A DNA stretch of 64,000 nucleotides. Origin: a virus. Taxonomy: Duplodnaviria > Caudoviricetes. Both the position numbers and the translations under genes were made by a program. This document shows, in pieces, positions 29,863 through 62,025 of this stretch (position 1 is its first letter; each line of letters starts with the position of its first letter). Location: IMG/VR virus record IMGVR_UViG_2516653058_000003, positions 1 through 64,000 of that record. One strand, 5' to 3'. The notes beneath the pieces are model-generated. The model saw only the letters and a program-made list of their open reading frames with translations. It ran no database searches and had not been told where the DNA came from.

Positions 29863-30219
29863 CTGGAAAGAACCCCGCCTTCCCTTACGTCATAGGTAGC
29901 AACATGTCCCAGCACGGGCAGAGGTCGCGTCCGTAAGGGCGGAGGCCCTGCACTTTCAACCGGAGACACCGATTTTTAGATGCGGGCAAATAGTAACGGA
30001 GGTTTTTATGTAAGTCAACAAAATGTTGTAAACGACCAAATGTAACATTCAAAAACCCCGCCATGTATGGCGGGGGCGCCGTGTCAATACCGCAAGGAAG
30101 GTGTTTCAAAAGCACCTGCCAGCACGCCGCCTGCCTCAGTGGGGGTTTGCGGGAATAGATTGGGGACGGCATACCCTGGGCGCACCTGCGCCCTTTTTTA
30201 TGAGACAAAGGAAAAAACT

Positions 30220-30804
30220 ATGTTAACTATCAGAAATGTAGGCATCACGGAGGCGGACGGCCTTTATTGCCTGAACGATTTGCACAAGGCCGGCGGGGGC
30301 GAGGAACGCCACAAACCTGCCAACTGGCTGCGCACCCAACAGGCCATCGAACTGGTGGCCGTTTTGGAGGCGGAGGCCGGAAACGCTAAGTCATTGATTT
30401 CAGCCGTTTCTCATATTCGAGCAACGGAACAAAATCAAATACTTACAGTTATTCAAGGTGGGGTCAGTTCCCAACAAGGCACCTTCGTCTGCAGGGAGCT
30501 GGTCTATGCTTACGCGACGTGGGTGTCGCCGGTGTTTTTCCTCCACGTATTAAGGGCTTACGACGCTTTGATACAGGCGGGGACGGTAGTCCCTGATGAA
30601 TGTGGCGATAACGTGGCCGCGCTGCAGCGGGCGCTGGTGTCAATGACGGAGCGGACCGACAGGCATGATATGGAATACCGGCGGATATTGGCGCTGTCAC
30701 AGGGAAATTATAACTTTGCCCACAGCAAACTCATTGTCGTCGAAGAATTACGCAAACAAATCAACCTGTTGCATGAAACCATACGGCAGATGGGCAGAAA
30801 GTAG
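30220..30804 (+). CDS. KilA-N domain protein
   Basis: YCLNDLHKAGGGEERHKPANWLR and GTFVCRELVYAYATWVSP KilA-N signatures; AAGGA RBS before ATG 30220. Confidence 0.88.
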   Translation: MLTIRNVGITEADGLYCLNDLHKAGGGEERHKPANWLRTQQAIELVAVLEAEAGNAKSLISAVSHIRATEQNQILTVIQGGVSSQQGTFVCRELVYAYATWVSPVFFLHVLRAYDALIQAGTVVPDECGDNVAALQRALVSMTERTDRHDMEYRRILALSQGNYNFAHSKLIVVEELRKQINLLHETIRQMGRK

Positions 30805-30820
30805 CCTGTCACTGTGCCTT

Positions 30821-30852
30821 AGCCCCGGCGCCAATAGGCCACGGGGCTTTTT
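30821..30852 (+). terminator. Terminator after KilA-N gene
   Basis: AGCCCCG...CGGGGCT followed by TTTT. Confidence 0.65.
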
Positions 30853-30887
30853 ATGCCTGCCATATAGGCAGTAGCGGAGGTAACCTT

Positions 30888-31019
30888 ATGAAAAGAATGG
30901 CGATCCCTAACGATGAGCTGAAAGTGCTGAGGGCTGAAAACCGCCTGAAGGCAGCCCTGTATTTCTTCAGCATCGTTTTCATCGCGTCGGTGATGGCGCT
31001 GGCGTTTGTCGGGGGCTGA
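30888..31019 (+). CDS. 43-aa membrane protein (not in ORF track)
   Basis: GGAGG RBS; C-terminal TM segment ALYFFSIVFIASVMALAFVGG. Confidence 0.6.
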   Translation: MKRMAIPNDELKVLRAENRLKAALYFFSIVFIASVMALAFVGG

Positions 31020-31020
31020 C

Positions 31021-31278
31021 ATGGGGGCTTATGAAGAGATAGAGGCGCTGGTGGAGGCGTGCGACGACGTGGCCGCAGGGCAGGCGGGGCCAAGGGCGCT
31101 GGGGTTCCAGTACGGGTGGCTTAGGGGTGAGTTCAAGCACGTCCTGCGTGACCTGGGGCTGACAGAAGGGCAAGTGGCTAAAGTGGCTGAAATGGCCGAA
31201 AAACGGCGTTTAAAGGCGGTTATGCTGGCGACTGGTGAGGAGCGGGCGTTCGGGTGGGACAACAGGGCCAAGCGGTAG
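31021..31278 (+). CDS. Hypothetical protein
   Basis: 85 aa, starts just after the upstream stop. Confidence 0.6.
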   Translation: MGAYEEIEALVEACDDVAAGQAGPRALGFQYGWLRGEFKHVLRDLGLTEGQVAKVAEMAEKRRLKAVMLATGEERAFGWDNRAKR

Positions 31279-31939
31279 TGTTTGTTTCCGCAGGTTGGTA
31301 GCAGCGTACACCCAGCACGGGTAGGGGCTGCCTCTGCGGAAACTCCCAGCTTTGCAGTGTTCGGGCACCAGAGACGGGACCCCGACACTGTTGTCAAGCA
31401 GTGAAAAGTATAAACTACTTTCTGTAGAAATCAACAAAATGTAACTTACAGAAGATAAAGATCAACTATAAATACTAATATAACTATTATTTAGTATATT
31501 TTTATTGTTTATTAGTGTTTTTTGTCATTTTGCTTTGTTAGTGGCCCTATGTATTTTTTTCATAGGGGTCGGGGTTGCGATTTTGTTGTTACCTCAACTA
31601 TATAACCCTCACCCTGAAAAACTGAGATATAGGGACTCTAACAAAGGAAATCGACAAAAACACTAATAATGCCAGCGGATTATCAACCGACAGCGCCATA
31701 AAAAACCAAAACCCACCCAAAACCCCACCTTTAACATTTATTGTAAACCAAACAAACAACAATAAATCTGCCAAAAACGCCCACGAAAACACCACCCGCA
31801 AGGCATAAAAAAGCCCCGTAAAGTACCCTTTCCGAGGCCAAATTCAGTAAACTGCATGCGCAGTTTACCAATTTTTGGGTATTATGTCAAGAAAAAGATG
31901 CAATTTTACACCTTGAAAAACACACTTTTTCTGCTTATT

Positions 31940-32167
31940 ATTAGTGTTAAAATAGTAAAACACTAATGAAAACCCCAAAAAACAGGTGTTTCATTAGTGC
32001 TAAAGTAGTAGTCACTATTATGAAAACCCCGGAAAGCGACATCTCTTCGTTTTATACACTTGCAAAACGCAAGCTACAAAATGTCAAAAACGAAGAGATG
32101 TAGCTTTCTGTATAGGTTTCTAGTAGTGACCACTATTTTAGCACTAATGACGGACATATTATTAGTG
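31940..32167. repeat. Nested long inverted repeats with CACTAAT boxes in an AT-rich region (origin-like)
   Basis: 31991-32020 and 32121-32150 are inverted at 27/30. An inner arm GAAAGCGACATCTCTTCGTTTT (from 32032) pairs with AAAACGAAGAGATGTAGCTTTC (to 32108), one mismatch. Confidence 0.9.
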
Positions 32168-32193
32168 CTATATTATTGTTCATTTATAAGTGT

Positions 32194-32223
32194 TTCACTG
32201 TTATAGCTCTAATAATGTATAAT
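32194..32223 (+). promoter_or_regulatory. Sigma70-type promoter for the 533-aa gene
   Basis: TTCACT-N18-TATAAT, 35 bp before the ATG at 32259. Confidence 0.5.
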
Positions 32224-32258
32224 CACAGTTTTATAGAGTCTTAAAAAGGTATTGAAAT

Positions 32259-33860: not shown

Positions 33861-33865
33861 AGCGC

Positions 33866-34012
33866 TATATTTAGAAATGGCCGCGTCGTCTAGTGGTTAG
33901 GGCATGGGTACTTGGAAACGTCGGTTCGAATCCGACTTAATCGTCTAGCGGCCTAGGACACCAGACCGCCGAAACGCAGGTTCGAACCCTGTCGCGGCCA
34001 TTTTTAAATATA
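33866..34012 (+). ncRNA. tRNA-like RNA with two tandem D-arm/T-arm modules and no anticodon arm
   Basis: Acceptor-like stem GGCCGCG/CGCGGCC extended to 20 bp; two TTCGAA T-loops (33920-33936, 33976-33992) and two GTCTAG.GG..AGG.C D-arms. Confidence 0.8.
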
Positions 34013-34077
34013 ACCGGAGATGTAGGCCTGTTGCGGATGGATTCTGGGTGCATTCGATTTTTTACCAAGATCCAACC

Positions 34078-34269
34078 TCAATGCCTTTTAAGCAGGCCCT
34101 TGCCCCCCTCCAACACCACCAGCAAATTTCTCCTCCCTTCTGCAATTTCCGAGGATTTATCCAAATCCTCGAAATATTTTTTATCCCCGGACACCCACGC
34201 CTCCACCGCTTTCGCTAGCGCGGCCTCCACGTTAGTGGGCACAACAGTTGGTTTTTTGATGTGTACCAT
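34078..34269 (-). CDS. 63-aa hypothetical protein
   Basis: C-terminal part of the track's 274-aa ORF; ATG 34269 follows an AT-rich promoter-like gap. Confidence 0.45.
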   Translation of the reverse strand: MVHIKKPTVVPTNVEAALAKAVEAWVSGDKKYFEDLDKSSEIAEGRRNLLVVLEGGKGLLKRH

Positions 34270-34546
34270 AATAAATACTACATTTTGTAATAAATAACAA
34301 AAAGTATATAACGACGATGGTGTATTTTCAATATAAGTCAAATGGGTAATATTTACCCCGCCACGGTTTTCGTAGTTGTTGCGTGGTGGTTCACATATTT
34401 TGGTTTGGGCTTGTGGTTGTTGGGTTCCAATTGCCGCAGGCCCGAACAAACCCAGAACCTTCCCGTTGCGAGAGGTTTCTGGCTTTGTTCCCAGCAAAGC
34501 AGGCCAAGGCAGCACACTTGGAAATTTTAAAATAAGGATAGTGGCC

Positions 34547-34840
34547 ATGGATAGGATCAGTGCGGCGGCAGAATTGGTGCGTAAGATCACCGAAGCGCAG
34601 CAGGCGGAGAAACAGCTTGAGGACCCGAACATCTGGGCGGACCGGGCAAGCCTTACCTGTGCATTGGTGGTCATCCTCAACCTGTTCGTCCTGGCCGCCA
34701 AACTAATCTGCTCATGGTTCGATATCCAGCTGGACGTGCCGCCCGACTTGGTAAGCAACACCACCGAAATCGTCACCTTTTTCGGTGTCCTCGTCGGCAA
34801 CCGCATCCACATCGCTTCAAACAGGGACGCAGGCAAGTAG
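34547..34840 (+). CDS. Two-TM holin-like membrane protein
   Basis: AAGGA RBS; two hydrophobic segments and a charged C-terminal tail; preceded by a CAGCAC hairpin. Confidence 0.6.
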   Translation: MDRISAAAELVRKITEAQQAEKQLEDPNIWADRASLTCALVVILNLFVLAAKLICSWFDIQLDVPPDLVSNTTEIVTFFGVLVGNRIHIASNRDAGK

Positions 34841-34893
34841 TCCCTTATTCCCCGCCACGGATGGCTCCCTTTGTTTAAAGACCGGAGACACCC

Positions 34894-35553
34894 ATGCGAC
34901 AAATCCCCATCAACGAGGGAAACCTCGTCAAGACAATCATCTGCGCTTGCGTACAGATGTTGGACTTTGGCCCGATAACGACAGACCGTAAAGACCTTGA
35001 AGCGGCCTTATATTCCTGCGAGGAACTGAAGGCGTTCACGGAACCGTTTATCCGAAAAAACCTGGACCAGGCTATTGGGATCAATCGCCAGCAACCTTCC
35101 GCACTTATAAACCGCTCCCTGCTGTTGGCCGCCACGGTCTCAAGGTCCCTTTATGCCGAAGTCGCATATAAGGTCCTGGTCGGCATATTGGCCAAGTTGG
35201 GGGTGGATTTTGACAAGCATGGCAGTTTTATCCGGGAAGTGGGAAAGGCGTTGGGCGGGTGGGATTCGGCGGTGGCGGCGATTATCGCAATAGCCGTCTT
35301 AGATGTTGCTGTAACAAAGGACTGGGACCGGCGGAAAGTCAAGGTGCTAACTGAAGAAGCAGAAACCCAATATCTGAAATTCAATAAAAACGGACGCGGA
35401 TGCAGCTGCCACTTGAACCCACCCTGTTCGTCCTGCACCCATGTAGGTAATCCCACCAATCTCTTAGAAACCGAAAAAGATTGGGAGCTAGTGACGGTTG
35501 ACGAAGCGGATGGCCGCACGACTTACGCCGAGTTGGAGGCAGCCGCCAGCTAA
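34894..35553 (+). CDS. Hypothetical protein with C-terminal Cys/His cluster
   Basis: ACCGGAGAC RBS; GCSCHLNPPCSSCTH possible metal-binding motif. Confidence 0.75.
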   Translation: MRQIPINEGNLVKTIICACVQMLDFGPITTDRKDLEAALYSCEELKAFTEPFIRKNLDQAIGINRQQPSALINRSLLLAATVSRSLYAEVAYKVLVGILAKLGVDFDKHGSFIREVGKALGGWDSAVAAIIAIAVLDVAVTKDWDRRKVKVLTEEAETQYLKFNKNGRGCSCHLNPPCSSCTHVGNPTNLLETEKDWELVTVDEADGRTTYAELEAAAS

Positions 35554-35560
35554 TCAGCCT

Positions 35561-35629
35561 ACAAACCCTTCCGGCACGAGGGGTTTGTGGGGTGGATTAG
35601 CCACCATTTCAATTTAACAAACCGGAGAC
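35561..35629 (+). promoter_or_regulatory. C(A/G)GCAC-loop hairpin plus ACCGGAGAC RBS
   Basis: 11-bp stem with one G-U, loop CGGCAC 35572-35577; motif at 35621. Confidence 0.8.
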
Positions 35630-35635
35630 AAACTT

Positions 35636-36064: not shown

Positions 36065-36159
36065 GGCCTTGCCGGTCTCCTGACCAGCCTATAACCCATT
36101 CATTTGTTCGAGTGGGTTATGGGGTGGGAAACACCGATAACTTAACATAGGAGATATTT

Positions 36160-36300
36160 ATGTAATTAACCGAATCAGAACAACAAGCCATCAACTCTTT
36201 TCTAGGGGGAAACTGGGCAGATTTTAAAAGATGTGCTGCCGCGTTCCTAGACGAGGACGAGATTGAAGAACTGGGACAAAAACTGGCTGATGGCCTGTAG
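36160..36300 (+). pseudogene. Small acidic gene with TAA at codon 2
   Basis: AGGAG RBS, then ATG TAA followed by an open 44-codon frame LTESEQQAINSFLGENW...GL. Confidence 0.65.
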
Positions 36301-36336
36301 CGTTACTTTTAATCGCTAACCGGAGACAGAAAACTA

Positions 36337-36753: not shown

Positions 36754-36754
36754 T

Positions 36755-36862: not shown

Positions 36863-36901
36863 CTTTAACGTCCAGGGATGGACACAACCTAGGGGATAAG
36901 T

Positions 36902-37099: not shown

Positions 37100-37112
37100 C
37101 CAGACAGCCATC

Positions 37113-37147
37113 GCAGCAGCACCTGCTTTGGACTGTTAACCGGAGAC
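37113..37147 (+). promoter_or_regulatory. CAGCAC hairpin plus ACCGGAGAC RBS
   Basis: GCAG-CAGCAC-CTGC inside a longer imperfect stem; motif at 37139. Confidence 0.7.
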
Positions 37148-37151
37148 AGTT

Positions 37152-38048: not shown

Positions 38049-38089
38049 ACCCCTCAGCACAGGGGTAGCACACAACCAAAACCGGAGAC
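38049..38089 (+). promoter_or_regulatory. CAGCAC hairpin plus ACCGGAGAC RBS
   Basis: ACCCCT-CAGCAC-AGGGGT; motif at 38081. Confidence 0.85.
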
Positions 38090-40942: not shown

Positions 40943-40955
40943 TACCTCTTAACAA

Positions 40956-40999
40956 CCCCAACTTCAACAGCACTTGAGGTTGGGGCACTCACCGGAGAC
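40956..40999 (+). promoter_or_regulatory. CAGCAC hairpin plus ACCGGAGAC RBS
   Basis: 12-bp stem with one G-U; motif at 40991. Confidence 0.88.
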
Positions 41000-41380: not shown

Positions 41381-43474
<2,094 letters not shown>

Positions 43475-43496: not shown

Positions 43497-43542
43497 GCAA
43501 CCACCTTTCAGCACAAAAGGTGGTTGCCAACATACCGGAGAC
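43497..43542 (+). promoter_or_regulatory. CAGCAC hairpin plus ACCGGAGAC RBS
   Basis: GCAACCACCTTT-CAGCACA-AAAGGTGGTTGC. Confidence 0.88.
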
Positions 43543-44604: not shown

Positions 44605-44748
44605 AAGGAGATTTTATGGGCGCACCACACCCTCAATGCCTTTGACGTGTACCCAAACCTGAACCATCCCAATCGGCACAAGTATGCGCAAGAACCTGTC
44701 ACTTTACCGTCTAAGTCCGAAGTTTTAATCGAAGAACAGTAACCCCAT

Positions 44749-44795
44749 GGTCACCATTTTTCAGCACAAAAATGGTGGCCAATCTAACCGGAGAC
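44749..44795 (+). promoter_or_regulatory. CAGCAC hairpin plus ACCGGAGAC RBS
   Basis: 13-bp stem with one G-U; motif at 44787. Confidence 0.88.
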
Positions 44796-44801: not shown

Positions 44802-46430
44802 ATGACAATATCCCAACTGATTACCGACGAAGTCGAGCAATTTTTCGCCCCTGTATCAACTGACGCAATCAATGCGCTAATTAGCAAGTACCAACGAGAC
44901 CGAGTTCAACTTGAATCGGTTTCTAATATAGTTCTGGATGGTCTCAGCTCAGTATTCCACTACTTCACGAGTGGCAACCTCAAAGGAGAACGATATATCA
45001 GCGTAGCTCCATCCACATTGTTTAATCCTGTTGGCGCAGTGGCATCCCTTAATTCGGCTTATTGGTCACAAGCATTAGCTTTGACTGATGTGTTGGATTT
45101 CATGCCACAAAAACGTAGGGAGGAGTGGAATACACAAATCCACGAAATGACCACGCCGGATTTTGTTGAAGATACGGTGCGTGCCACCCTCATGGATTTA
45201 ATTTTAATGCGGTCCCAGTTCTTTTCCGAGCGGGTTGACGGGGTGTTCCGGGCATTGTCGAAAAGTCACGTAACCAACACCCCGGAAGGGTTCAACAAAC
45301 GGATGATTATTGAAAACGTCATCAGCTCTTACGGCACGGTCGAGTATAACAAAGCCGGATACATTCACGATCTCCGTTGTATTGTGGCGAAGTTTATGGG
45401 TCTGGAAGACCCGTCCGGCCATATCACCGGTAGGCTGATTGACCGGATAAAGAACACCCCTGGCGAATGGGTAGAGCTTGATGGAGGTGCTTTGAGAATC
45501 AAAGTATTCAAGAAAGGCACAGCACATTTGGAAGTCCACCCTGACATGGCGTGGCGATTGAATGCGGTTCTGGCCAGCCTCTACCCCGCTGCTATCCCAT
45601 CTAAATTCCGCACCAAGCCGGAATCCAGACCTAAAGAGTATCGCCTTATCCAGCAGCCAATATCGACTGACGTACGGGAGATGTTATATGAAGGGACTTA
45701 TTTCGATGAATCCAACTACCAACGTGTCGGCTCGGATCATCAGAAATACCTTAAAAGAATTCACTCATTTTGTTTTAAATACACATCCAAAGAACACCCA
45801 ACCACACTGTCTGCAGCAAAAGCTGCTTTAGAAGCTATTGGTGGTGTTGTGCAAAGCAACGGCGAAATTTGGTTCGACTACAACGCCAGAGACATTATCC
45901 AAGAAATTATCATCCGTGGTTGTTTACCGGACGACAAGTCACATCAATTCTACCCTACCCCTAAGTGGTTGGCAGAACGTTTGGTGGATATGGCGGAGCT
46001 GGAACCGGATATGAAGTGTCTGGAGCCTGAAGCTGGCCTGGGGGCGATTGCTGACGTGATCGCCGAGCGTATCCCCAACGACAAAGTAGACTGTGTGGAA
46101 ATATCGGAGCTGCGTTGCGAAGTGCTGAAGGCCAAAGGGTATATGACGTTGTGCAAAGACTTTTTGACCATGAAATATGACCATAGATTGTTTAAACCTT
46201 GGCCGCGAATCATCATGAACCCTCCGTTCAGTGAAGGACGTGCTTTAGCACATGTTAAGCACGCCTCGACTTGGCTGACTGAGGATGGCATCCTGGTTGC
46301 CATTATGCCTGCAAGTTACATTGGCAAAGATATTCTGCCGGGATTCCATATCACATGGTCTGAACGCATCGACAACGCCTTTGACGGAGCTGGCGTGTCA
46401 GTAGCCTTAATGAAAGCAGTAAAGAAGTAA
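44802..46430 (+). CDS. DUF4942-domain class I SAM DNA methyltransferase
   Basis: QFYPTP, LEPEAGLG SAM-binding motif and MNPPF catalytic motif; N-terminal DUF4942-type region. Confidence 0.85.
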   Translation: MTISQLITDEVEQFFAPVSTDAINALISKYQRDRVQLESVSNIVLDGLSSVFHYFTSGNLKGERYISVAPSTLFNPVGAVASLNSAYWSQALALTDVLDFMPQKRREEWNTQIHEMTTPDFVEDTVRATLMDLILMRSQFFSERVDGVFRALSKSHVTNTPEGFNKRMIIENVISSYGTVEYNKAGYIHDLRCIVAKFMGLEDPSGHITGRLIDRIKNTPGEWVELDGGALRIKVFKKGTAHLEVHPDMAWRLNAVLASLYPAAIPSKFRTKPESRPKEYRLIQQPISTDVREMLYEGTYFDESNYQRVGSDHQKYLKRIHSFCFKYTSKEHPTTLSAAKAALEAIGGVVQSNGEIWFDYNARDIIQEIIIRGCLPDDKSHQFYPTPKWLAERLVDMAELEPDMKCLEPEAGLGAIADVIAERIPNDKVDCVEISELRCEVLKAKGYMTLCKDFLTMKYDHRLFKPWPRIIMNPPFSEGRALAHVKHASTWLTEDGILVAIMPASYIGKDILPGFHITWSERIDNAFDGAGVSVALMKAVKK

Positions 46431-46436
46431 ACCCAC

Positions 46437-46478
46437 ACCAACCCTCAGCACAGGGTTGGTAACCACCCCACCGGAGAC
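46437..46478 (+). promoter_or_regulatory. CAGCAC hairpin plus ACCGGAGAC RBS
   Basis: ACCAACCCT-CAGCAC-AGGGTTGGT. Confidence 0.88.
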
Positions 46479-48221: not shown

Positions 48222-48264
48222 TGATCCCCGGTGCAGCACACACTGGGGATCACATACCGGAGAC
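48222..48264 (+). promoter_or_regulatory. CAGCAC hairpin plus ACCGGAGAC RBS
   Basis: 12-bp stem with one G-U; motif at 48256. Confidence 0.88.
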
Positions 48265-48268: not shown

Positions 48269-48358
48269 ATGACACACCCATCAGCCCAGCTATGGGCAAT
48301 AAGTCCTTATTGCCTTTCAAATCTCCAAACATGGACACCTAGAATTTTTAAGGGGTAG
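48269..48358 (+). CDS. 29-aa leader ORF before the primase
   Basis: ATG at proper spacing from ACCGGAGAC; TAG ends 3 nt before the primase GTG, same frame. Confidence 0.45.
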   Translation: MTHPSAQLWAISPYCLSNLQTWTPRIFKG

Positions 48359-53409: not shown

Positions 53410-54016
53410 AAAGATTACCGGCTACCAAGTAAAAACCACAGCAGCTGAACCTCTGCCAACTGTGCAGCAGATGCACGAGGATCTGAAACGGCCTGATGTG
53501 TTGCTGGGCAGCACCTACAAAGTGAAAACGCCGCAATCGGATCATGCGTTGTACATCACCATCAACGACATGGTTTTGAACCAAGGCACCGCCCAAGAGG
53601 AGCTCCACCCTTACGAGATATTCCTGAACTCTAAGAATATGGAAAATTTTCAATGGGTTTTGGCCTTGACGCGGGGTATTTCGGCGGTGTTTCGTAAAGG
53701 AGGTGATGTGTGCTTCCTTGTGGAGGAGTTGCGTGCCATCTTTGACCCAAAAGGAGGGTACTTTAAAAAAGGCGGGGTATTTATGCCGTCACTGGTGGCG
53801 GAGATTGGGTTAGTGATTGAAACCCACTTAAAGTCTATTGGCAGACTTAAGCCGGAGCCAATGGATACGGCACGGATGCAGTTTATTGGGACGAAATTAA
53901 ATCAAACTGGGTTTCTACCGGCGGCGATACTGTGTAACAAATGTATGGCGAAAGCTGTAACAGTCATGGACGGGTGCCAAACCTGCTTAAATTGCGGGGA
54001 TAGCAAGTGTGGGTAG
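53393..54016 (+). CDS. Stand-alone NrdJb-like (class II RNR C-terminal, TSCPD-type) protein
   Basis: RPDVLLGSTYKVKTPQSDHALYITIND, PYEIFLNSKN, MPSLVAEIG and terminal CxxC..GCQTCLNCGDSKCG. Confidence 0.8.
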   Translation: MEQIGKKITGYQVKTTAAEPLPTVQQMHEDLKRPDVLLGSTYKVKTPQSDHALYITINDMVLNQGTAQEELHPYEIFLNSKNMENFQWVLALTRGISAVFRKGGDVCFLVEELRAIFDPKGGYFKKGGVFMPSLVAEIGLVIETHLKSIGRLKPEPMDTARMQFIGTKLNQTGFLPAAILCNKCMAKAVTVMDGCQTCLNCGDSKCG

Positions 54017-54141
54017 ATTCCCAAAACAATAACCGGAGACAACAAATCCAGGCTAGTAACAATTGAACCCAGCACACCACACCCGCAAAGGACGGGTTAT
54101 TTAATCCTTTACCGTAATTTTTTAACAACTGGAGACACAAA

Positions 54142-54966
54142 ATGGCTTTATTAAAACCTGTAGTACCTGTTACAACCTTACCTGAAACTGAAACCGTGCC
54201 TGTCGCATCAGTTCAGGAAACTACAACACACACCCCTACCGTGGACCCTGTGGTGCTCGAAACATTTGCGCCGTTGGAATCATCAGCCCCAGCCCAACAG
54301 TTGGCCGAAGTCCCTGCAACTAACACAGCCGTGGCCACAACTTCCCCACCGGCAGAACCTGTGTCGGGAGGGCATCTTACGATGAGGGATTTCTCTGAGG
54401 CCGGTTTCAACGGCCTTATCGTTGACTCCCGTACATTTCCGATCATCAACCTGAAGAATGACGGCCACTTCAAGGACATGGATGATTTTGATTATGGTAC
54501 GGAAATGCGCGGGCGGCTTCTCTCCTCCGCAGAGAAGATCGTGATGACTGCGAAATACCCAGACCCGTATAAACCAGGAACAAACCTGGAAGACGTGGTG
54601 TTTTGCATTGACGAAACTCGCCTTGCGTCTGGCCGGCTGGTTTCCGATTGGAAAGAAGAAATGGTTAAACGCGGTGGTTCTTCCCAATTTGGAACAACGT
54701 TCGAAGAGCGCCGTTACACAGACGTGTTAGTGGTGGTTGACCAGCCGGGAGTCGAGTACGACGGTGAAATGCGTATCTGGTCTATTGCGCCGACATCCCG
54801 TGGCCGCCTGACAGGGGTTCTAAACATCATGGCAGCAAAAGCCGGATGGAAAACAGCCCAGGAACTGAAGGAACATATGTCGGAAAAAGTGGTGGTGGCA
54901 AGCGTTGGGGCAGCGGTGCCACATGATAAAGGGTCGTTCTATCCTTGGAACTTCAAGGCGCTATAA
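54142..54966 (+). CDS. Putative ssDNA-binding/replication accessory protein
   Basis: Pro/Thr/Glu-rich N-terminal tail and beta-rich core ending FYPWNFK; directly upstream of the polymerase. Confidence 0.5.
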   Translation: MALLKPVVPVTTLPETETVPVASVQETTTHTPTVDPVVLETFAPLESSAPAQQLAEVPATNTAVATTSPPAEPVSGGHLTMRDFSEAGFNGLIVDSRTFPIINLKNDGHFKDMDDFDYGTEMRGRLLSSAEKIVMTAKYPDPYKPGTNLEDVVFCIDETRLASGRLVSDWKEEMVKRGGSSQFGTTFEERRYTDVLVVVDQPGVEYDGEMRIWSIAPTSRGRLTGVLNIMAAKAGWKTAQELKEHMSEKVVVASVGAAVPHDKGSFYPWNFKAL

Positions 54967-54983
54967 CCCACTGATACCCCTAC

Positions 54984-55030
54984 CCCCTACACCCAGCACG
55001 GTGTAGGGGAGTTTTACATTAACCGGAGAT
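54984..55030 (+). promoter_or_regulatory. CAGCAC hairpin plus ACCGGAGAT RBS
   Basis: CCCCTACACC-CAGCAC-GGTGTAGGGG. Confidence 0.88.
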
Positions 55031-55035
55031 AATTA

Positions 55036-58000
55036 ATGAACATCAAGACCCTGTTCGATTTACGGGGTATGGTTATCCATGCCTTAAATGCCAGCACCGA
55101 CCGTGAACCCATCACACTCCCCAGCGGTGAAAAGGCCAACAGCGTTGGCCACTGCCTCAATAATTTTATTGAGATGTACCTGCTGCCAACCATACAAGAA
55201 ACCCGCCTGAACGATATTATTGCTGTCAGAGACGGCGGCAATGAATACCGTAAAGCACTGTATCCTGAATACAAAGCCAACCGGGCAGGTAAAGACCCGG
55301 AGCTGTCAATCCACCATAGCAATTGCGTCAATGCCGTTATTGACCTTTTAAAAGGCCTGGGCATACCGGTTGCCGAAATCCCTGGAGTTGAGGCGGATGA
55401 CATCCTGGCCTATCTGGTAGAGAAATTACCAGGTCCTAAGATGATTTACACAGTAGACCAGGACCTACTGCAACTGTCCTCCCCCGACTGCCTGGTTTTT
55501 TTGAAAACCCAAATCAACACCGACGGGTACGCCCTTTATAACTGCAGCGGATCCAGCAAGCAACTGTTGATGACGGTTCATCCACGGCATGTGGCCTTGC
55601 TGAAATCCATTGTTGGGGATTCGTCGGATAATTATGGCGGCGTAAAAGGCGTGGGGCCTGTGGCCTTTGCCAAACTAGCAGAAGTCTACGGATTGGATGG
55701 GTTAGATGAATTGTGTTCAATTATTAGTAAGGATGGTTATGCCACCTTACAAGAAGTCATCAACCAAACAGGGGACAAAACCTTGGTGGCCTTGTTTGAG
55801 CGCCGTGACGAGTGGAAACTAGGCTGGAATCTGGCCAACCTGGCCCCGCAGCTGGTCGGCGAGCGTAAAACCACCAAGTTCAATAACATCATTTGGACGA
55901 AGCGCCTGCCCAGTCCAGAGCGTGTCAACCGCATCTTGGCTGAACATGGTTGCGGGTATCTCTACCCAAAACTAAAACCGGTACTCCCAACGAAAACACT
56001 GATTACAGCGGACAACATGCCGCCATTGTCTCGTTTTGAAAGTGCGTTCAAACAATCCGAAGTCATCGCCGTTGACTGGGAGACCACGGATTACCTACAG
56101 CACCAACCTTTTCGTGATGCAACCAAAGGCCGTGAATTTGTTGACATGCTATCTGCCAAATTGACAGGGTCGGGTTTTACCTTCGGGCGAAATTACGAAC
56201 ACACAATATATGTGTCGTATGACCATGCAGACACTAATAATTTGCCACGGGAAACGCTGCTGGATTTACTGGGGGTGATACCGGACGAATCAGTTATAGC
56301 TATTCAAAACTGCCTACCTGGGGATGTGGAGGTTCTAACTAGAGATGGTTGGGCGTGTATAAAGGACACGAATTGCAGCCAAGAAATTATGCAATGGGAT
56401 AGTACAACAGGAGAGTTGTCTTTTGCCCATCCGACACAGAAAGTAGAGGCGGACGCTGACACTCTTTTGAAGTGGGACACGTTGTACCACTCTTGTACCT
56501 ACACACCAGAGCATCGAATGTACTTCCAATCAAATCACTGCTTCCCTAAGTGGAAGGCGGAACCTTGTAAGCAAGTATCTGAGTATCATCCGAATACTGT
56601 ATACATCCCTCTAGCAGGCATATACAACCACCCTTCTGTTCAATTGACGGAGGCCGAGGCTCGGCTATTGGAAGCGATACGGGCCGATGGGCATTTCCCT
56701 GTGAACAGATCTAAGCAGATTAAGTTTCACTTCATAAAACAACGAAAGATAGACCGGCTCCTAGAATTGTGTAGGGAGGCAGGGATCGAGACTGTTGTAG
56801 TTAAAGAAACAGATGGGTCGGTGCGTGTAACACTACAATCAAGCTCTTTGGTAGGTAAGTTTAGAAGCTTACTGGGGGTAGAACGACGTTACACAAAAAC
56901 TCTGGTACTGTCTTTGGATATAAAGGCCAGAGAATATATCCTTGATGAGGTTAAGTTTTGGGACGGAGGCTCTGTATATAAGAAAGGTGCTCACTTTTAT
57001 TCAATAGATGTGGAGACTGTGGACGCGATCCAATTAATGGCTCATATATCTGGGTGGCGGTGTTCTGGTTCATGGGGGGGGAATAAAAAGGGGTATGGGC
57101 TACTAAACGGTAAAAACATCTTTAGAGGGACACTGTACCCAAGATCACGAGCCAAATTAATGCAGACCCCTGTTGAGGTGCCACATAACGGAAAAGTATT
57201 TTGTTTTTCTGTACCTTCTGGGGCGTTTATGGTGCGTTCGAAAGGCAAGATACATATTACCGGAAACTGTATGTTCGAAAATACAGTGCTCCGCTGCAAT
57301 TTTAATGGTGCCTTTCTGACGAATTGCCACGACACCAAGGTGATGGCTAGCTACGTCGATGAAAACCAACCGGCAGGCTTAAAAGACCGGGCATTACTAC
57401 ACCTCAACTACAGACAAACCCATTACGGTGATGTGATCGCCAAAGGCAAAACGATGTCCGACTACTCCGCCGAGCATGTGTTCCAATACGGCGCAGACGA
57501 CCCGCTAGTCACTGCCCACTTATATGATTTCTACAAAATGATCATGCAGATCGAAGGCACGTTTGACTTCTGTGTGGCCAATGAAATGGAACCTATTGAG
57601 ATGATCTCGGAAGGGTTCATCGCCGGGGTGTCGGTGGATTGGGATGAATTGGAACGGCAAGGCATTGAAGACCGCAAAACTTTGGATGAGTCCATCGTTA
57701 AGATCAGGGAGCTGATCGTAGCAAACCAAACTGAAGAGACCATCGAATCCGGTGTTGACCGTATCTACTCGGAAGATGTTGAAGAAGTGGTGGCGCGGGT
57801 CAATACCGACTTCAAGGCGGGCAAATTTAACGGCCTGGCCGACCCGGCAGAGCTGGTTCGTGACCGTGAGATTTCCGCCAAATCTATTGCCCTGCGGAAG
57901 AAGTTGGAAGGGTTGGTAACCTATCAGCCGTATGTCGAAACGTCCGTTGATGCCGCCATTGATATGACCCCGTCCGACATCAACCCCCTGCTGGAAGGTC

Positions 58001-59766
58001 TGGGAATACCAAAACTGGAAGCTGGGACCGACGCGTTGCAAGGTTATAAGCTAGCCGATTTTTTGAAAAAACAGCAACTGGTTTCTGACTGGGCAAAGCC
58101 TTACATGTCCAACTCTCCCGAAGCGGCCACATTCTTACGGTTGTTGGTGCCTGCTGTAGCTTACAACGACACCGCCAAAACCAAACTCGCTAAAGGTGAA
58201 GGGCGTGCCCACCAGGTCTATAAAGAATGGCAGGAATATGCAAAAACCTTGAGGGGAGAGAAGGTGAAAGTGTCCTCAACCGGGTTCGAAATGAACCTTA
58301 ACTCCCCCCTGCAAATGAAAGCGCTGCTGTACGGCATGTTTGACTTGCCTGCCCGTTTACGTGGTTTCGAAATCAGCGACACCCGCAAGGCGTTGGGTCT
58401 GGTAACCCCCACCATCCAAGCCAATGAAGATGCCATAGTCACGGCATTGGCGGAAGACTGTGCAGACCATTCCTGGAAAAAAGAAGCCTTGGAAGCGTTA
58501 ATGGCGGCGAAAAAATGCCAAACCCGTATCAGCATGTTTTACGACGTTTATCCAAAATGGCAACATCCCGTTGACGGGCTAATCCACCCTCAGGTTAACA
58601 GTTGTGGGACAGAAACCAGACGCCCTACGGGTTCGTCCCCCAACCCACTACAATGGCCTAAGCGAGGGGACGGGGTTAAGTTTCGTAACTGCATCCTACC
58701 TAACGAAAAGTTGGGTCACGACCTGATTGTGTCAATAGACTGGAGCCAGCAGGAGCTTCGTATTGCGGCGGCCTTGTCGATGGATGAAGCCATGCTGGAT
58801 TGTTATATTGGGAAGGATGTCGAACATGTAATATCTGGCGACGTGGAGGCGTTGCTGGGCGAAGCCCTATTGTCTAGGTTCCTTAAAACAAGCACGAAAG
58901 ACATCCACACCCAAACCGCATCAGGTCTGTTGAAGTGGGCATACGATGATGTGGTGGCCGCGTTATCTGGAGATGATAAAACCCTAGCTAAGACTGCTAA
59001 GGATGCGCGTGTTACGTCGAAACCCATCAATTTCGGGGGCACCTATGGTATTGGTAGCGGCAAGCTTGCCAGGCAGTTAATTTGCCCTATCACAGAGGCC
59101 AAACAATATTTGGCAGATAAAAAAGCGCTGTATCATGGGTTTGAGCGTTGGCGTGAAAACGTCATCAACCTCGTCTGCCAGCAAGGGTTTGTCACCACTG
59201 CCTTCGGCAACCGCCGCCATGTGTTCGACCAGATTACCACCCAAGACGAAGGGCTATGGGCATCTGTCTGCCGCCAAGTGGTGAACTACCTTATCCAAGG
59301 AGTTTGTGCCGATAACTTGAAGCGCACGATGACCGCTATCCGGCAGCAAGGCATAACACAACGCACTGGTGCGGTGCTTATAGCTCCGATCTACGATGAG
59401 TTGGTGTTCTCAGTACACAGCAGCAATGCGGTTGACTTAATCATGAATGTCCACAGCATCATGACCAGGGATATACCAGGAATGGCGGTGCCGATGTTGG
59501 CTGAGCCTTCCTTGGGGATCAACTTTGGGGTGCAGGTAGAAATCGGGGCGTTCCCGACACCTGAAAAAATCGAATCGGCAATGTCTAAGGCTTTTGCTGT
59601 GCCACGGCAGTTGTGGGTTCATTATGGGTCGGATTCCTATATCGAAACCCATGACTTACGGGATCTCAAACACTTAGCGGAAGTGCCTGAAGACTTGTAT
59701 GACGTGACGGATATACCGGAGCATGAAGAACGGTTTAAACAGCAAATATTACAAGTAGCCGCTTAA
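55036..59766 (+). CDS. polA: Family A DNA polymerase (5'-3' exonuclease, 3'-5' exonuclease, polymerase) containing an intein
   Basis: EADDILA, DQDLLQL and GDSSDNYGGVKGVG (5' nuclease); DWETT ExoI; DWSQQELR motif A; KPINFGGTYG motif B; YDEL motif C. Confidence 0.95.
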   Translation: MNIKTLFDLRGMVIHALNASTDREPITLPSGEKANSVGHCLNNFIEMYLLPTIQETRLNDIIAVRDGGNEYRKALYPEYKANRAGKDPELSIHHSNCVNAVIDLLKGLGIPVAEIPGVEADDILAYLVEKLPGPKMIYTVDQDLLQLSSPDCLVFLKTQINTDGYALYNCSGSSKQLLMTVHPRHVALLKSIVGDSSDNYGGVKGVGPVAFAKLAEVYGLDGLDELCSIISKDGYATLQEVINQTGDKTLVALFERRDEWKLGWNLANLAPQLVGERKTTKFNNIIWTKRLPSPERVNRILAEHGCGYLYPKLKPVLPTKTLITADNMPPLSRFESAFKQSEVIAVDWETTDYLQHQPFRDATKGREFVDMLSAKLTGSGFTFGRNYEHTIYVSYDHADTNNLPRETLLDLLGVIPDESVIAIQNCLPGDVEVLTRDGWACIKDTNCSQEIMQWDSTTGELSFAHPTQKVEADADTLLKWDTLYHSCTYTPEHRMYFQSNHCFPKWKAEPCKQVSEYHPNTVYIPLAGIYNHPSVQLTEAEARLLEAIRADGHFPVNRSKQIKFHFIKQRKIDRLLELCREAGIETVVVKETDGSVRVTLQSSSLVGKFRSLLGVERRYTKTLVLSLDIKAREYILDEVKFWDGGSVYKKGAHFYSIDVETVDAIQLMAHISGWRCSGSWGGNKKGYGLLNGKNIFRGTLYPRSRAKLMQTPVEVPHNGKVFCFSVPSGAFMVRSKGKIHITGNCMFENTVLRCNFNGAFLTNCHDTKVMASYVDENQPAGLKDRALLHLNYRQTHYGDVIAKGKTMSDYSAEHVFQYGADDPLVTAHLYDFYKMIMQIEGTFDFCVANEMEPIEMISEGFIAGVSVDWDELERQGIEDRKTLDESIVKIRELIVANQTEETIESGVDRIYSEDVEEVVARVNTDFKAGKFNGLADPAELVRDREISAKSIALRKKLEGLVTYQPYVETSVDAAIDMTPSDINPLLEGLGIPKLEAGTDALQGYKLADFLKKQQLVSDWAKPYMSNSPEAATFLRLLVPAVAYNDTAKTKLAKGEGRAHQVYKEWQEYAKTLRGEKVKVSSTGFEMNLNSPLQMKALLYGMFDLPARLRGFEISDTRKALGLVTPTIQANEDAIVTALAEDCADHSWKKEALEALMAAKKCQTRISMFYDVYPKWQHPVDGLIHPQVNSCGTETRRPTGSSPNPLQWPKRGDGVKFRNCILPNEKLGHDLIVSIDWSQQELRIAAALSMDEAMLDCYIGKDVEHVISGDVEALLGEALLSRFLKTSTKDIHTQTASGLLKWAYDDVVAALSGDDKTLAKTAKDARVTSKPINFGGTYGIGSGKLARQLICPITEAKQYLADKKALYHGFERWRENVINLVCQQGFVTTAFGNRRHVFDQITTQDEGLWASVCRQVVNYLIQGVCADNLKRTMTAIRQQGITQRTGAVLIAPIYDELVFSVHSSNAVDLIMNVHSIMTRDIPGMAVPMLAEPSLGINFGVQVEIGAFPTPEKIESAMSKAFAVPRQLWVHYGSDSYIETHDLRDLKHLAEVPEDLYDVTDIPEHEERFKQQILQVAA
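56311..57267 (+). mobile_element. Intein (319 aa) with LAGLIDADG-type endonuclease
   Basis: Starts CLPGDVEVLTRDGW, ends KVFCFSVPSGAFMVR..IHITGN before Cys; internal LLEAIRADG and VKFWDGG blocks. Confidence 0.92.
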
Positions 59767-59797
59767 GGGGGTATTTATATCAGCACAACGTAAACCA

Positions 59798-60022
59798 TTG
59801 GACACATCCAAAAAGGACCGGCGTACCGAAGCAAAAGCCCTTAACACCCAAATCCTGGTGTCGCGGGGCGTTACGTTCGAATCCCTTAAAGACGGGTATC
59901 ATTTAATTATCCGTATGGGCAGTAGGCGCATCCATTACTGGCCGTCAACCGATAAATGGATGGAAAACCGCAAGCCCGTGAGGTATGGGATAAAATCGTT
60001 GTTGTCGTGCCTAAACGCATAA
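59798..60022 (+). CDS. Hypothetical basic protein
   Basis: TTG start; IHYWPSTDKW motif. Confidence 0.55.
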   Translation: MDTSKKDRRTEAKALNTQILVSRGVTFESLKDGYHLIIRMGSRRIHYWPSTDKWMENRKPVRYGIKSLLSCLNA

Positions 60023-60081
60023 ATGACATAAATTCCTTATCGACAATCCGCGCAACTTACCTTATATTGTAGCCTCACTTA

Positions 60082-60129
60082 TCCGGCATGGTTGACAGCA
60101 CCTTCCATGCCGGACACCAAACCGGAGAC
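60082..60129 (+). promoter_or_regulatory. CAGCAC hairpin plus ACCGGAGAC RBS
   Basis: TCCGGCATGG/CCATGCCGGA outer stem, loop CAGCAC 60096-60101; motif at 60121. Confidence 0.8.
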
Positions 60130-60132
60130 ATT

Positions 60133-60897
60133 ATGGATACCTCGATCCCCTACACTCTAGTAGTGTTTGATACGGAGACGACTGGCGTTGACCCAACGGT
60201 TGACGAAGTTTGCCAGTTCGCCTGTATCGCCATCAAAAGCACCCACCCCGAAAATATCGTCGAATTTGAAAGCCTTTGCGACCCTGGCCGGCACATCCCT
60301 GAGGAGGCCATAGCGAAGCATGGCATACCTAACGAAGCCGTAGTTGGAAAGCCTAAAACCCGAAATCTATTAAATGAAGTTATGGCGGAACTTTTCGAGT
60401 TTGCTGCCGGAACCCAGCTGATCCTTGGCGGCCATAATACAAAATTCGACTGGAATTTCTTGCAGAAGCATGTGTTCATCCCTGATGACACGCTATCTCT
60501 TTGCACACTCCGTATGGCTAGGGTGTTGGCACCTAATTCCGATAACCACCAACTCGAACACCTCTACAGAAACCACTACTCCCTGCAATCCCCACGAACA
60601 AAAACCGCGCACGATGCGCTATGTGACGTGTGGATGAGTTATGAGCTGCTGAATCACTGGCTGTCCCAGCGCCCTGACCTGTCAATACTTGAAATCGCTG
60701 ACGAACTCAAGCTCCCTATGAAGCTTGAGACGATGCCGTTCGGCAAAAATAAAGGCCGCCCGTTCTCTGAGATCCCGTATAAAGCCCTGCGTTGGTATGT
60801 GGATCAAGGCAGTGCTATGGATCAGGATGTTAGATTTACGGCAGGAGTTTGGTGTAAGCTATGGGAAACCCCAGCAGAAATGATGGCAAGAGGTTAG
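60133..60897 (+). CDS. DEDDh 3'-5' exonuclease (DnaQ/ExoX-like)
   Basis: FDTETTG, HNTKFD and AHDALCD motifs; C-terminal MPFGKNKG as in ExoX; start moved to 60133. Confidence 0.9.
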   Translation: MDTSIPYTLVVFDTETTGVDPTVDEVCQFACIAIKSTHPENIVEFESLCDPGRHIPEEAIAKHGIPNEAVVGKPKTRNLLNEVMAELFEFAAGTQLILGGHNTKFDWNFLQKHVFIPDDTLSLCTLRMARVLAPNSDNHQLEHLYRNHYSLQSPRTKTAHDALCDVWMSYELLNHWLSQRPDLSILEIADELKLPMKLETMPFGKNKGRPFSEIPYKALRWYVDQGSAMDQDVRFTAGVWCKLWETPAEMMARG

Positions 60898-61334
60898 AGC
60901 AAACCATACAGGCAGCCCTACAGCAACACCACCTGCATAATAGGTCTAATTTCGTCCGCCTATATGACCAGACATCGACAGGAGGTAGAGGGTTCGCGTT
61001 GCCTGGGGACTTCTATTGGTTTGTGCCTGGTAATGCAATTTTGATTGAATGCAAATCAACTGCAATCTGTAAGCCGCTACTATCGCTGGTACGGTCGTCT
61101 AAACACAGTAAAGACCAGATACCACGGCACAGATTGCACCATTTGTCAGGACATCCCAGCGTCTATCTTTATGGGGACTTACTAAACGATGAAATAACCG
61201 CATACGACGGGGAGTCCGTGGTGGCTGCGGTTAATGAAAAGAAAAAGGACTTGGTAATAATTTCAAAAGCAGATATGTCGTCTACAGGTGGGCTGTTAGA
61301 CAACATTATCCAACATATCAGGAGCTGTAAATGA
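60861..61334 (+). CDS. RecU-like PD-(D/E)xK Holliday junction resolvase
   Basis: GKRLE..PGDF..LIECKS motif order. Confidence 0.7.
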   Translation: MGNPSRNDGKRLEQTIQAALQQHHLHNRSNFVRLYDQTSTGGRGFALPGDFYWFVPGNAILIECKSTAICKPLLSLVRSSKHSKDQIPRHRLHHLSGHPSVYLYGDLLNDEITAYDGESVVAAVNEKKKDLVIISKADMSSTGGLLDNIIQHIRSCK

Positions 61335-61978
61335 GTGATTTAACTAAGAAGCTTAGCCAATACATGAAACCGGGGACTTACAAAAAAGGGGAAAACATAA
61401 CCATAAACCTGGCCCAATTCGACGGGCTAATTATTGTCGATAAAGGCATCTGCCTTGTGGAGACTAGCCGGGAATCTGCAAAGGCACGCGGCAAATATGA
61501 CGTGTCCGTAGGGGTGTTGAAACCAGAAGGGTCGATGATCGGACTGGAATTCTTCTTTGTTCCGCAGACCCTAAGATATCCCGCCTCAGTGAGGTCTGTC
61601 ACCGATTCCGACGTACGGACAATGACCAGGAAAAAATTCGCCAGCCTGCTGGATACAGAACTTGCAAGTATCAAGACTTTCATCTTCGAGGAGATTGCCA
61701 GGCAACTGGCGGATTATTTTAACTCCCTGCAATTGCAGTTGGAGCGGCAGGCCAAGGCGGCGCCAGAGGATAGGGTATTGGATGTGTTTGAGCACGTCAG
61801 GCCTATCGTAGGAACCCCCCACCCAGCAGGTACCGAAATAAAGATACCAACGTATGTCCTGCAGCGGCTGGCGGGGGATTCCCCCCGGTCGTTTCAGGAA
61901 GGGGCCAAACGCCTCATGCAGGAAGGGAAGTTGTTAAAGTCAGGGAGGGCTTCATGGGTGTTACCAACCCATAACTAA
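61331..61978 (+). CDS. Hypothetical protein
   Basis: 215 aa, AGGAG RBS. Confidence 0.7.
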   Translation: MSDLTKKLSQYMKPGTYKKGENITINLAQFDGLIIVDKGICLVETSRESAKARGKYDVSVGVLKPEGSMIGLEFFFVPQTLRYPASVRSVTDSDVRTMTRKKFASLLDTELASIKTFIFEEIARQLADYFNSLQLQLERQAKAAPEDRVLDVFEHVRPIVGTPHPAGTEIKIPTYVLQRLAGDSPRSFQEGAKRLMQEGKLLKSGRASWVLPTHN

Positions 61979-61982
61979 CCAC

Positions 61983-62025
61983 AGGCTGCCGCAGCACCGG
62001 CAGCCTTTTAACAAAAACCGGAGAC
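61983..62025 (+). promoter_or_regulatory. CAGCAC hairpin plus ACCGGAGAC RBS
   Basis: AGGCTGCCG-CAGCAC-CGGCAGCCT. Confidence 0.88.

Follow-up and report, generated by a model that had tools for sequence, protein, structure and literature searches.

A ten-nucleotide ribosome-binding word, commonly preceded by a CAGCAC-loop hairpin, leads the gene blocks of the replication arm in a siphovirus-like prophage

The stretch of DNA analysed here (the window) comprises 64,000 nucleotides, positions 1 to 64,000 of the IMG/VR virus record IMGVR_UViG_2516653058_000003 (Caudoviricetes), and corresponds to G000:C1:922810-986809 inside a single-contig genome of 4.69 Mb with 50.6% G+C. Its right arm carries a short repeated sequence, ACCGGAGAC(A), which lies directly before the start codons of many genes and is referred to below as the word. 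The window is located within an integrated siphovirus-like prophage of ~76.4 kb, bounded by 18-bp direct repeats (GTCAGTCCAATCCAGCAT) at window-equivalent positions -3150 and +73222 (L280:10222). The left copy of the repeat lies within the 5' part of host dus; beside this gene, at the left end of the prophage, is a tyrosine integrase gene (L009:17026-18042). The left arm (window positions 25 to ~27400) is encoded on the minus strand and consists of large open reading frames (ORFs), one of which, of 2131 amino acids (aa), suggests a tape measure protein by its size alone. The right arm, of ~40 kb, is encoded on the plus strand. According to Pfam and PHROG assignments, it is a module for replication and nucleotide metabolism, and its products include a DUF932 protein, an NAD-dependent ligase, a DUF4942/methyltransferase protein, an AEP-type primase, an SNF2 helicase, a family A polymerase, an RNase_T-type exonuclease, an SbcCD-like pair, and a DnaJ-domain protein.

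The exact 8-mer ACCGGAGA, which makes up the first eight positions of the word, was found 19 times in the window. An earlier note on this DNA, made by a model from the sequence alone, had called for its counts to be compared with shuffled sequence, and dinucleotide-preserving shuffles gave an expectation of 1.35 +/- 1.18 copies with a maximum of 5. The + strand of the right arm, between 29959 and 62025, holds 17 of the 19 copies. The other two are in the left arm, at 16270 (+) and 22059 (-); this count is at chance level, and no start codon follows either copy. All 17 positions that the note had listed for ACCGGAGA(C), together with the variant ACTGGAGAC at 54128, were verified on the + strand. 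Across the entire 4.69-Mb genome, the 9-mer ACCGGAGAC occurs 25 times in the forward and 7 times in the reverse orientation, and 18 of the 25 forward copies fall within 55 kb containing the right arm. Four extra copies of the word are located past the end of the window, at window-equivalent 66098, 67311, 70197, and 72661, still within the prophage. The full word is 10 nt long and has eight invariant positions: positions 1-8 are identical in the aligned copies except for a single C-to-T change at position 3, whereas C at position 9 and A at position 10 are each present in 16 of 19 copies. When the copies are aligned on the word, the information content outside it is ~0 already at -1 and +11.

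The position of the word relative to start codons is equally constrained. Twenty of the 22 prophage copies, all on the + strand, lie 3-9 nt before a start codon (19 ATG and 1 TTG), a spacer range slightly wider than the 4-9 nt given in the note. Among the 19 ATG-led copies, one (48256) opens just a 29-aa ORF before the primase gene. Three copies had been described as lacking a properly spaced gene; those at 29959 and 54032 are true orphans, while the copy at 34013 has a TTG 9 nt downstream. To define the genes that carry the word, right-arm cistrons were classed by the gap to the preceding cistron, with 28 following a gap of at least 25 nt and 23 being coupled, that is, overlapping or abutting the preceding one. 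The word precedes 19 of the 28 gap-following cistrons and 1 of the 23 coupled cistrons (Fisher p = 2.3e-6). Therefore, the word is the ribosome-binding site of independently initiated, block-leading right-arm cistrons, in line with the proposal that it marks one class of genes. The coupled right-arm cistrons use assorted Shine-Dalgarno (SD) sites lying within the preceding gene. The left-arm genes likewise show assorted ordinary sites, as had been remarked for the structural genes.

We then considered whether the conserved bases could be explained by pairing with the host ribosome. The host has three 16S ribosomal RNA (rRNA) genes, all ending ...GGAUCACCUCCUUA and thus carrying a canonical anti-SD sequence. 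The 16S tail, ...CACCUCCUUA, provides a pairing partner for GGAG only, and the six flanking bases of the word are all non-complementary to it. The predicted SD duplex at word-led genes is -6.6 kcal/mol throughout (standard deviation 0.06, 4 bp). Elsewhere in the prophage the corresponding values extend from -0.4 to -15 kcal/mol, with -8.2 +/- 3.3 kcal/mol for coupled right-arm and -6.4 +/- 3.4 kcal/mol for left-arm genes. The non-complementary flanks and the uniform 4-bp duplex rule out extended pairing of the word with 16S rRNA. Nor do host genes use the word. Among 498 GGAG-led host starts, ACC is present upstream in 15, AC downstream in 29, and both in 1, and the 9-mer has 12 copies outside the prophage (both strands, 4.6 Mb), which is at or below chance, with a start codon following in 2 of the 12. 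The flanks are under site-by-site selection that pairing with rRNA does not account for. The note had argued that the flanks add information beyond SD pairing, unless the host anti-SD sequence or host leaders proved to share the word; the argument holds, since none of the six bases can pair with the 16S tail, and no such sharing was found.

The word has a structural partner. A hairpin with a CAGCAC loop is located 4-15 nt upstream of the word in 14-17 of the 22 copies (loop variants CAGCACA twice and CAGCAT once). Conversely, each clean CAGCAC hairpin of the right arm has the word within 4-15 nt downstream and none occurs without it, confirming the suspected association of the two elements. 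Stem covariation was counted by script on loop-anchored arms. In 12 clean hairpins, 94 of the 96 stem positions are paired, compared with 44 +/- 6.6 when left and right arms were re-partnered. Four or five pair types occur at each stem position and the arms are ~30% identical among hairpins, with an invariant loop. Departures from pairing in the stems are G-T wobbles and never A-C, in keeping with selection of the sense strand in single-stranded form. These results show that selection acts on the hairpin as a structure of the single strand, with a loop of specific sequence. RNAfold recovered the hairpins and left the word mostly unpaired. The stretch from the stop codon through the 5' arm is C/A-rich and G-poor, and the 3' arm is G-rich (e.g., 40952-40985, 46430-46460, and 54966-55009).

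Overall, the right arm is built of gene blocks, within which cistrons overlap or abut, and the blocks are split by compact cassettes. Seven intergenic regions of 50-56 nt share one layout, consisting of a stop codon (mostly TAA), 2-12 nt, a hairpin of 6-14 bp, 4-15 nt, the word, 3-9 nt, and ATG. With intergenic regions of this length, there is no room for a promoter in the tightest cassettes. Sigma-70-like sites are not enriched in the right arm and none recurs among the cassettes; the best promoter-like sites are in an AT-rich region at 31.9-32.2 kb. In a terminator scan, 2 of the 9 clean CAGCAC hairpins within the scanned window passed (41382-41403 and 54984-55009), and these are the only ones with the GC-rich hairpin and direct U-tract of intrinsic terminators. 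T-runs are partial in about six hairpins and absent from the remainder. Repetitive extragenic palindromic (REP) elements in operons and T7 RNase III sites are intercistronic hairpins that set RNA 3' ends and uncouple neighbouring cistrons. The present hairpins resemble them in lying between cistrons of what would be long transcripts, but combine a variable stem with an invariant hexaloop, and at 6-14 bp they are too short for classical RNase III.

An Rfam search of 27000-64000 (E <= 1) returned no family for the cassette, only a transfer RNA (tRNA)-like element and two chance-level matches. ARAGORN calls no tRNA at the position of this element (33879-34000), which has a single acceptor stem around two D/T-arm-like units and lies between a 533-aa orphan ORF and the word at 34013. 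In the cassette heading the array, the tRNA-like RNA takes the position of the hairpin, an arrangement suggestive of a function in RNA processing or in the formation of 3' ends. The composite pattern of hairpin loop and word was found 15 times in the forward and 0 times in the reverse orientation here, compared with 0-4 times per strand in 400 other genomes of the same order. One of the 400, the unpublished genome G478, has a single chance match, and the conclusion is independent of it. Among the matches listed for the composite pattern in viral and genome contigs, there were single chance matches, none with a CAGCAC stem and a start codon. The coordinates of all features are given in Table 1.

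Table 1. Copies of the word and associated RNA elements along the right arm, in window coordinates
Feature	Position	Strand	Details
Weak CAGCAC hairpin, 4-5 bp	29905-29920	+	Upstream of orphan copy 29959
Orphan copy ACCGGAGAC	29959..29967	+	No ORF of at least 30 aa starting 3-9 nt downstream; only a 21-aa ORF at +12
tRNA-like RNA, 122 nt	33879..34000	+	Rfam tRNA model, 36.5 bits; ends 12 nt before word 34013
Copy ACCGGAGAT	34013..34021	+	TTG 9 nt downstream, opening 88-aa ORF 34031-34297; gene uncertain
Copy	34881..34889	+	ATG 34894, 219 aa; spacer 4 nt; no upstream CAGCAC hairpin
Copy	35621..35629	+	ATG 35636, 142 aa; spacer 6 nt; hairpins upstream carry other loops
Copy	36319..36327	+	ATG 36337, 138 aa, TerB-like, phrog_632; spacer 9 nt
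Imperfect CAGCAC hairpin	37108..37131	+	9-position stem, 2 mismatches
Copy	37139..37147	+	ATG 37152, 106 aa; spacer 4 nt; intergenic region 52 nt
CAGCAC hairpin, 6-bp stem	38049..38066	+	
Copy	38081..38089	+	ATG 38096, 279 aa, DUF932; spacer 6 nt; intergenic region 52 nt
CAGCAC hairpin, 12-bp stem	40956..40985	+	
Copy	40991..40999	+	ATG 41005, 96 aa; spacer 5 nt; intergenic region 52 nt
CAGCAC hairpin, 8-bp stem and T-run	41382..41403	+	Passes terminator scan
Copy ACCGGAGAA	41413..41421	+	ATG 41426, NAD-dependent DNA ligase
Hairpin with loop CAGCACA, 12-bp stem	43497..43527	+	
Copy	43534..43542	+	ATG 43548, 222 aa; spacer 5 nt
CAGCAC hairpin, 14-bp stem	44748..44781	+	
Copy	44787..44795	+	ATG 44802, 542 aa, DUF4942 plus methyltransferase
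CAGCAC hairpin, 9-bp stem	46437..46460	+	
Copy	46470..46478	+	ATG 46487, 231 aa, phrog_2554; spacer 8 nt; intergenic region 56 nt
Hairpin with loop CAGCACA, 12-bp stem	48222..48252	+	
Copy	48256..48264	+	ATG 48269, 29-aa ORF 48269-48358; stop 3 nt before primase GTG 48362
Orphan copy	54032..54040	+	No start codon downstream
Variant copy ACTGGAGAC	54128..54136	+	ATG 54142, 274 aa; orthologue kept in distant relatives
CAGCAC hairpin, 10-bp stem and T-run	54984..55009	+	Passes terminator scan
Copy ACCGGAGAT	55022..55030	+	ATG 55036, family A DNA polymerase, 1576 aa
Imperfect CAGCAC hairpin	60083..60113	+	9-bp stem, enlarged loop
Copy	60121..60129	+	ATG 60133, 254 aa, RNase_T-family exonuclease
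CAGCAC hairpin, 9-bp stem	61983..62006	+	
Copy	62017..62025	+	ATG 62030, SbcD-like phosphoesterase; spacer 4 nt; intergenic region 51 nt

Two of these places have an unusual arrangement. The orphan copy at 54032 is followed by a stemless CAGCAC (54066-54078) and then by a terminator-like hairpin (54081-54097), and 54032-54097 as a whole resembles what a lost cassette or small gene would leave behind. Relatives carry a small ORF where the window has the intergenic remains at 54016-54142. The AEP-type primase (953 aa) starts at GTG 48362, with the position of its N-terminus fixed by homologues. It has its own AAGGGG site within the end of the word-led 29-aa ORF, and it looks translationally coupled to this leader peptide.

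Several other right-arm genes deserve mention. The family A polymerase (55036-59766) has 1576 aa, compared with ~1200 aa in the orthologues of distant relatives (L269, L274). The SbcD/SbcC-like pair (62030-63121; L280:135-2297) is of the hairpin-cleaving nuclease type, and is encoded by a phage with at least 15 intergenic hairpins. Past the end of the window, a nucleotide-metabolism block (L010:2112-8623; window-equivalent 66112-72623) encodes a MazG-like protein, a 435-aa protein with a PF18909 dATP/dGTP diphosphohydrolase domain, a dCTP-deaminase-like protein, thymidylate synthase, and DHFR. Modified DNA bases are one possibility raised by this gene set.

We searched for relatives in which the word could be compared. 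Megablast with 15 kb of right-arm sequence found no match in the phage collection, and a search with the primase gave no match in viral contigs, 60 related host genomes, or 400 genomes of the class. The primase has protein relatives of 37-58% identity (P0002-P0007). Profile scans of metagenome and viral contigs recovered relatives only at <=30% identity. These distant relatives are viral contigs of ~75 kb with a primase 25-30% identical, and the nearest cultured phages, Pseudomonas phage Lana and some Vibrio phages, are very distant (primase ~24% identical). The primase, SNF2, 274-aa, PolA, and exonuclease genes are kept in the distant relatives, and the small genes between them vary. One group of distant relatives uses the leader ACCAAAAGACC-(N2-9)-AGGA-(N)-GACCA-ATG. 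In one of its members, G459 (75 kb; L269, 29.9-62.7 kb), nine copies of the ACCAAAAGACC leader lie on one strand within 33 kb and one on the other, and the polymerase gene is among the genes it leads. Two further relatives carry the palindrome TTCGGAC-WW-GTCCGAA, with 13 copies in G460 (L274, 48-75 kb) and 18 copies in G461 (L264, 3.9-30 kb and 70-75 kb); where loci were read, tattt-AGGAGAATTT-ATG comes after several of the copies. In Pseudomonas phage Lana, the ribosome-binding sites are heterogeneous and share no word. The leader words and palindromes of the distant relatives indicate that arm-specific leader codes recur in this broad group and that the code turns over.

The closest known analogue is the start-associated sequence (SAS) of Cluster K mycobacteriophages, described since 2011 (PMC3203893). 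It is a 13-bp word containing AGGAG (consensus GGGATAGGAGCCC, <=2 deviations), present in 11-19 copies in the right arm only and 3-9 bp upstream of a start codon, usually ATG. Its flanks are conserved although they do not pair, and it is nearly absent from the host (PMC3203893). Its role was still called unknown in 2024-2025 (PMC11373665, PMC12699233). Both elements are short asymmetric words in one orientation, confined to the non-structural right arm of a temperate siphovirus and placed 3-9 nt before a start codon, mostly ATG. Both combine an SD core with conserved bases unable to pair with 16S rRNA, both are essentially absent from the host genome, and both have a second, upstream inverted-repeat element at about half or more of the copies. 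They differ in sequence: ACCGGAGAC(A) is shorter than GGGATAGGAGCCC and unrelated to it, with only the GGAG core in common. They also differ in host and phage lineage, the present host being Gram-negative and the phage carrying an AEP primase/PolA module. The extended SAS (ESAS) consists of sequence-conserved 17-bp imperfect inverted repeats with no RNA-pairing support, now read as SigA-like promoters with operator repeats, whereas the element described here is a true hairpin with variable, covarying stems (~30% identity), an invariant loop, and no room for a promoter. Thus, the word works like SAS and agrees with it in every positional respect, but lies outside the SAS family by sequence and by its upstream element. 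The feature is highly non-random, and is an independent instance of the SAS kind whose RNA hairpin partner lacks an Rfam family.

How this system operates can be proposed from its sequence. We put at roughly one half the probability that the word is the common ribosome-binding word of all block-leading early-arm cistrons, that the cassettes punctuate long early transcripts, and that a trans-acting reader recognises them. The cassettes would lie inside long polycistronic transcripts made by the host RNA polymerase. The hairpin would be read as RNA through its loop, and may insulate adjacent cistrons, stabilise the upstream RNA, or recruit the reader or a further factor. The flanks of the word would form the recognition site of a trans-acting factor, protein or RNA, which is most likely phage-encoded because the host does not use the word code. 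By binding or cleaving at the ribosome-binding site, such a factor would raise, lower, or time the translation of ~20 cistrons jointly. Such logic would make the system a post-transcriptional regulon that follows the RegB/RegA principle and has the anatomy of SAS. The turnover of leader codes among distant relatives would be expected from co-evolution with a phage-specific reader. More tentatively, the loop hairpin and the start word may together be the cis-code of a previously undescribed post-transcriptional phage regulon, in which an RNA-binding or RNA-cleaving phage factor recognises the CAGCAC loop, the ACC-GGAG-ACA word, or both, and cuts or masks the 40-kb early polycistron at ~20 points.

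Several observations weigh against a dedicated reader of all block-leading cistrons. Nine gap-following cistrons lack the word; they are small, doubtful, or decayed ORFs, most of them at 36-41 kb. A six-frame search of the whole genome for RegB (PF10715) gave no match at E <= 1, and a search of the genome for the RegA family (PF01818) found no homologue. Scans of ~45 prophage ORFs against Pfam and PHROG showed no recognisable RNA-binding or endoribonuclease domain, and four ORFs in a PDB sequence search and two in Atlas look-ups gave no usable leads. The comparison is limited to relatives with a primase <=30% identical, and we infer co-transcription, processing, and formation of the hairpin in RNA from the sequence.

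The earlier note had pointed to a T4 RegB-type system. In T4 infections, the RegB endoribonuclease cuts GGAG at the G-A junction. For RegB/S1 of T4, the strong site spans 11 nt, GGAGRAYARAA, is located in early-gene SD sequences, and depends on the RNA structure around it (PMC3014915). The resemblance lies in GGAG SD sequences of early genes with extra conserved context, and in one factor for a class of early messages. However, no RegB homologue is encoded in this genome, T4 sites are not invariant words, and the context here is GGAGACA, with C where the consensus has A and a conserved ACC on the 5' side as well. A system of the RegB type is therefore not supported. Overall, the interpretation offered in the note stands in part, retaining the flanks, the gene class, and the link to the hairpin, and losing the RegB homologue and the consensus. 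GGAG occurs 190 times inside right-arm genes, and therefore any nuclease would have to read the flanks; the avoidance of GGAG in early coding sequence that would be the signature of a GGAG nuclease is not seen. An antisense partner was also considered and rejected. No complement of the word or loop is present in the non-coding prophage, and the only + strand complement (22058-22066) lies inside a late gene.

It is also conceivable, though in our view unlikely, that there is no dedicated reader and that the word is simply the standard ribosome-binding part of the phage, with a short SD, an A-rich spacer, and an AU-rich lead-in behind a stabilising hairpin. Such a part would have been copied from cassette to cassette by duplication or recombination, and in evolution it would chiefly offer microhomology for the gain, loss, and shuffling of blocks in the manner of the promoter early stem-loop (PeSL) cassettes of T4-like phages. 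The word is indeed confined to places free of coding constraint, after gaps. The orphan at 54032 with its stemless CAGCAC resembles a deletion scar, and small genes vary between core genes in the distant relatives while primase-SNF2-PolA synteny is kept. PeSLs conserve 40-50 nt comprising a sigma-70 early promoter and a stem-loop, and are documented mediators of such shuffling (PMC2839356, PMC4122927). Here, too, repeated stem-loop composites flank small gene blocks in early plastic regions, where modular-exchange boundaries have been proposed. However, only 6 + 10 nt are conserved in the present cassettes, the stems vary, there is no promoter, and the conserved word is a ribosome-binding site. 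The shared 9-10 nt fall far below the length conserved in PeSLs and are short for homologous exchange. Cassette shuffling, which the note had offered as another role of the word, thus has circumstantial support from the orphan region and from the synteny with variable small genes, and has the shortness of the shared sequence against it. Moreover, the sequence on either side of the word is unrelated among copies and the stems are ~30% identical. Recent duplication thus does not explain the copies, and keeping eight positions invariant in ~20 old copies requires selection at each site. An equal 4-bp SD is available from many sequences, and host and left-arm genes show such diversity.

We give less credence to the word being a DNA operator, read in double-stranded DNA by the prophage repressor or another phage protein that would block early-arm transcription in the lysogen, with GGAG doubling as the SD. 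The 13-bp stoperators of mycobacteriophage L5 and the dispersed C1 operators of P1 are models for such an arrangement. Stoperators of Cluster A mycobacteriophages (the sites of L5 gp71) act in DNA, occur in both arms, and keep no fixed distance from start codons. The phage described here is integrated, encodes an integrase, and is flanked by 18-bp direct repeats, and its ~22 asymmetric intergenic sites all point in the direction of transcription, as do the stoperators, which form sets of some 20-30 short asymmetric intergenic sites oriented with transcription in a temperate phage. The palindrome conserved in 13 and 18 copies in G460 and G461 also resembles a protein-binding DNA site. In contrast to stoperators, the word is used in the right arm only and is locked to start codons; the 3-9 nt offset and the lack of any other SD in that space tie it to translation. 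Its partner hairpin is selected as a single strand, with covarying stems, an asymmetric loop, and G-T but not A-C departures, which argues for RNA. No repressor of matching specificity was found, the 120-aa candidate at 27547-27909 having a weak Xre-like match.

It is highly improbable that the hairpin acts in single-stranded DNA, for example by signalling the AEP-type primase to load or prime on the lagging-strand template, with the word simply sharing the intergenic space. The primase is encoded by the phage itself, and all hairpins are on the + strand, spaced 0.4-6.8 kb apart, mostly 1-3 kb; if a fork left the AT-rich region at 31.4-32.2 kb, the + strand would template its lagging strand. 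This position of the origin is a guess, however, and the proposal leaves unexplained both the invariant flanks of the word and its presence within 4-15 nt after each clean right-arm CAGCAC hairpin. The idea that phage-directed transcription of the N4 or T7 kind begins at each cassette, which would then serve as a promoter or start site, can be practically discounted: GGAGAC does resemble a T7-type initially transcribed sequence (T7 promoters have a conserved +1 GGGAGA) and the succession of hairpin and conserved word is reminiscent of N4 early promoters, but hairpin and word are separated by anything from 4 to 15 nt, the cassettes lack a conserved sequence upstream, family scans found no phage RNA polymerase among the large ORFs, and the word lies at SD distance from ATG.

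These findings bear on more than this prophage. The anatomy of SAS has arisen independently in an unrelated phage of a Gram-negative host, and the marking of a message class thus appears to be a general phage strategy rather than a peculiarity of a single cluster. As a natural part, the 50-nt cassette compactly combines insulator and ribosome-binding site, and the word is a precise aid to the calling of gene starts in this phage group. If the regulon reading is true, the phage factor would set the timing and stoichiometry of the replication genes, and the SAS of Cluster K, long unsolved, would find an explanation in the same principle, with another code.

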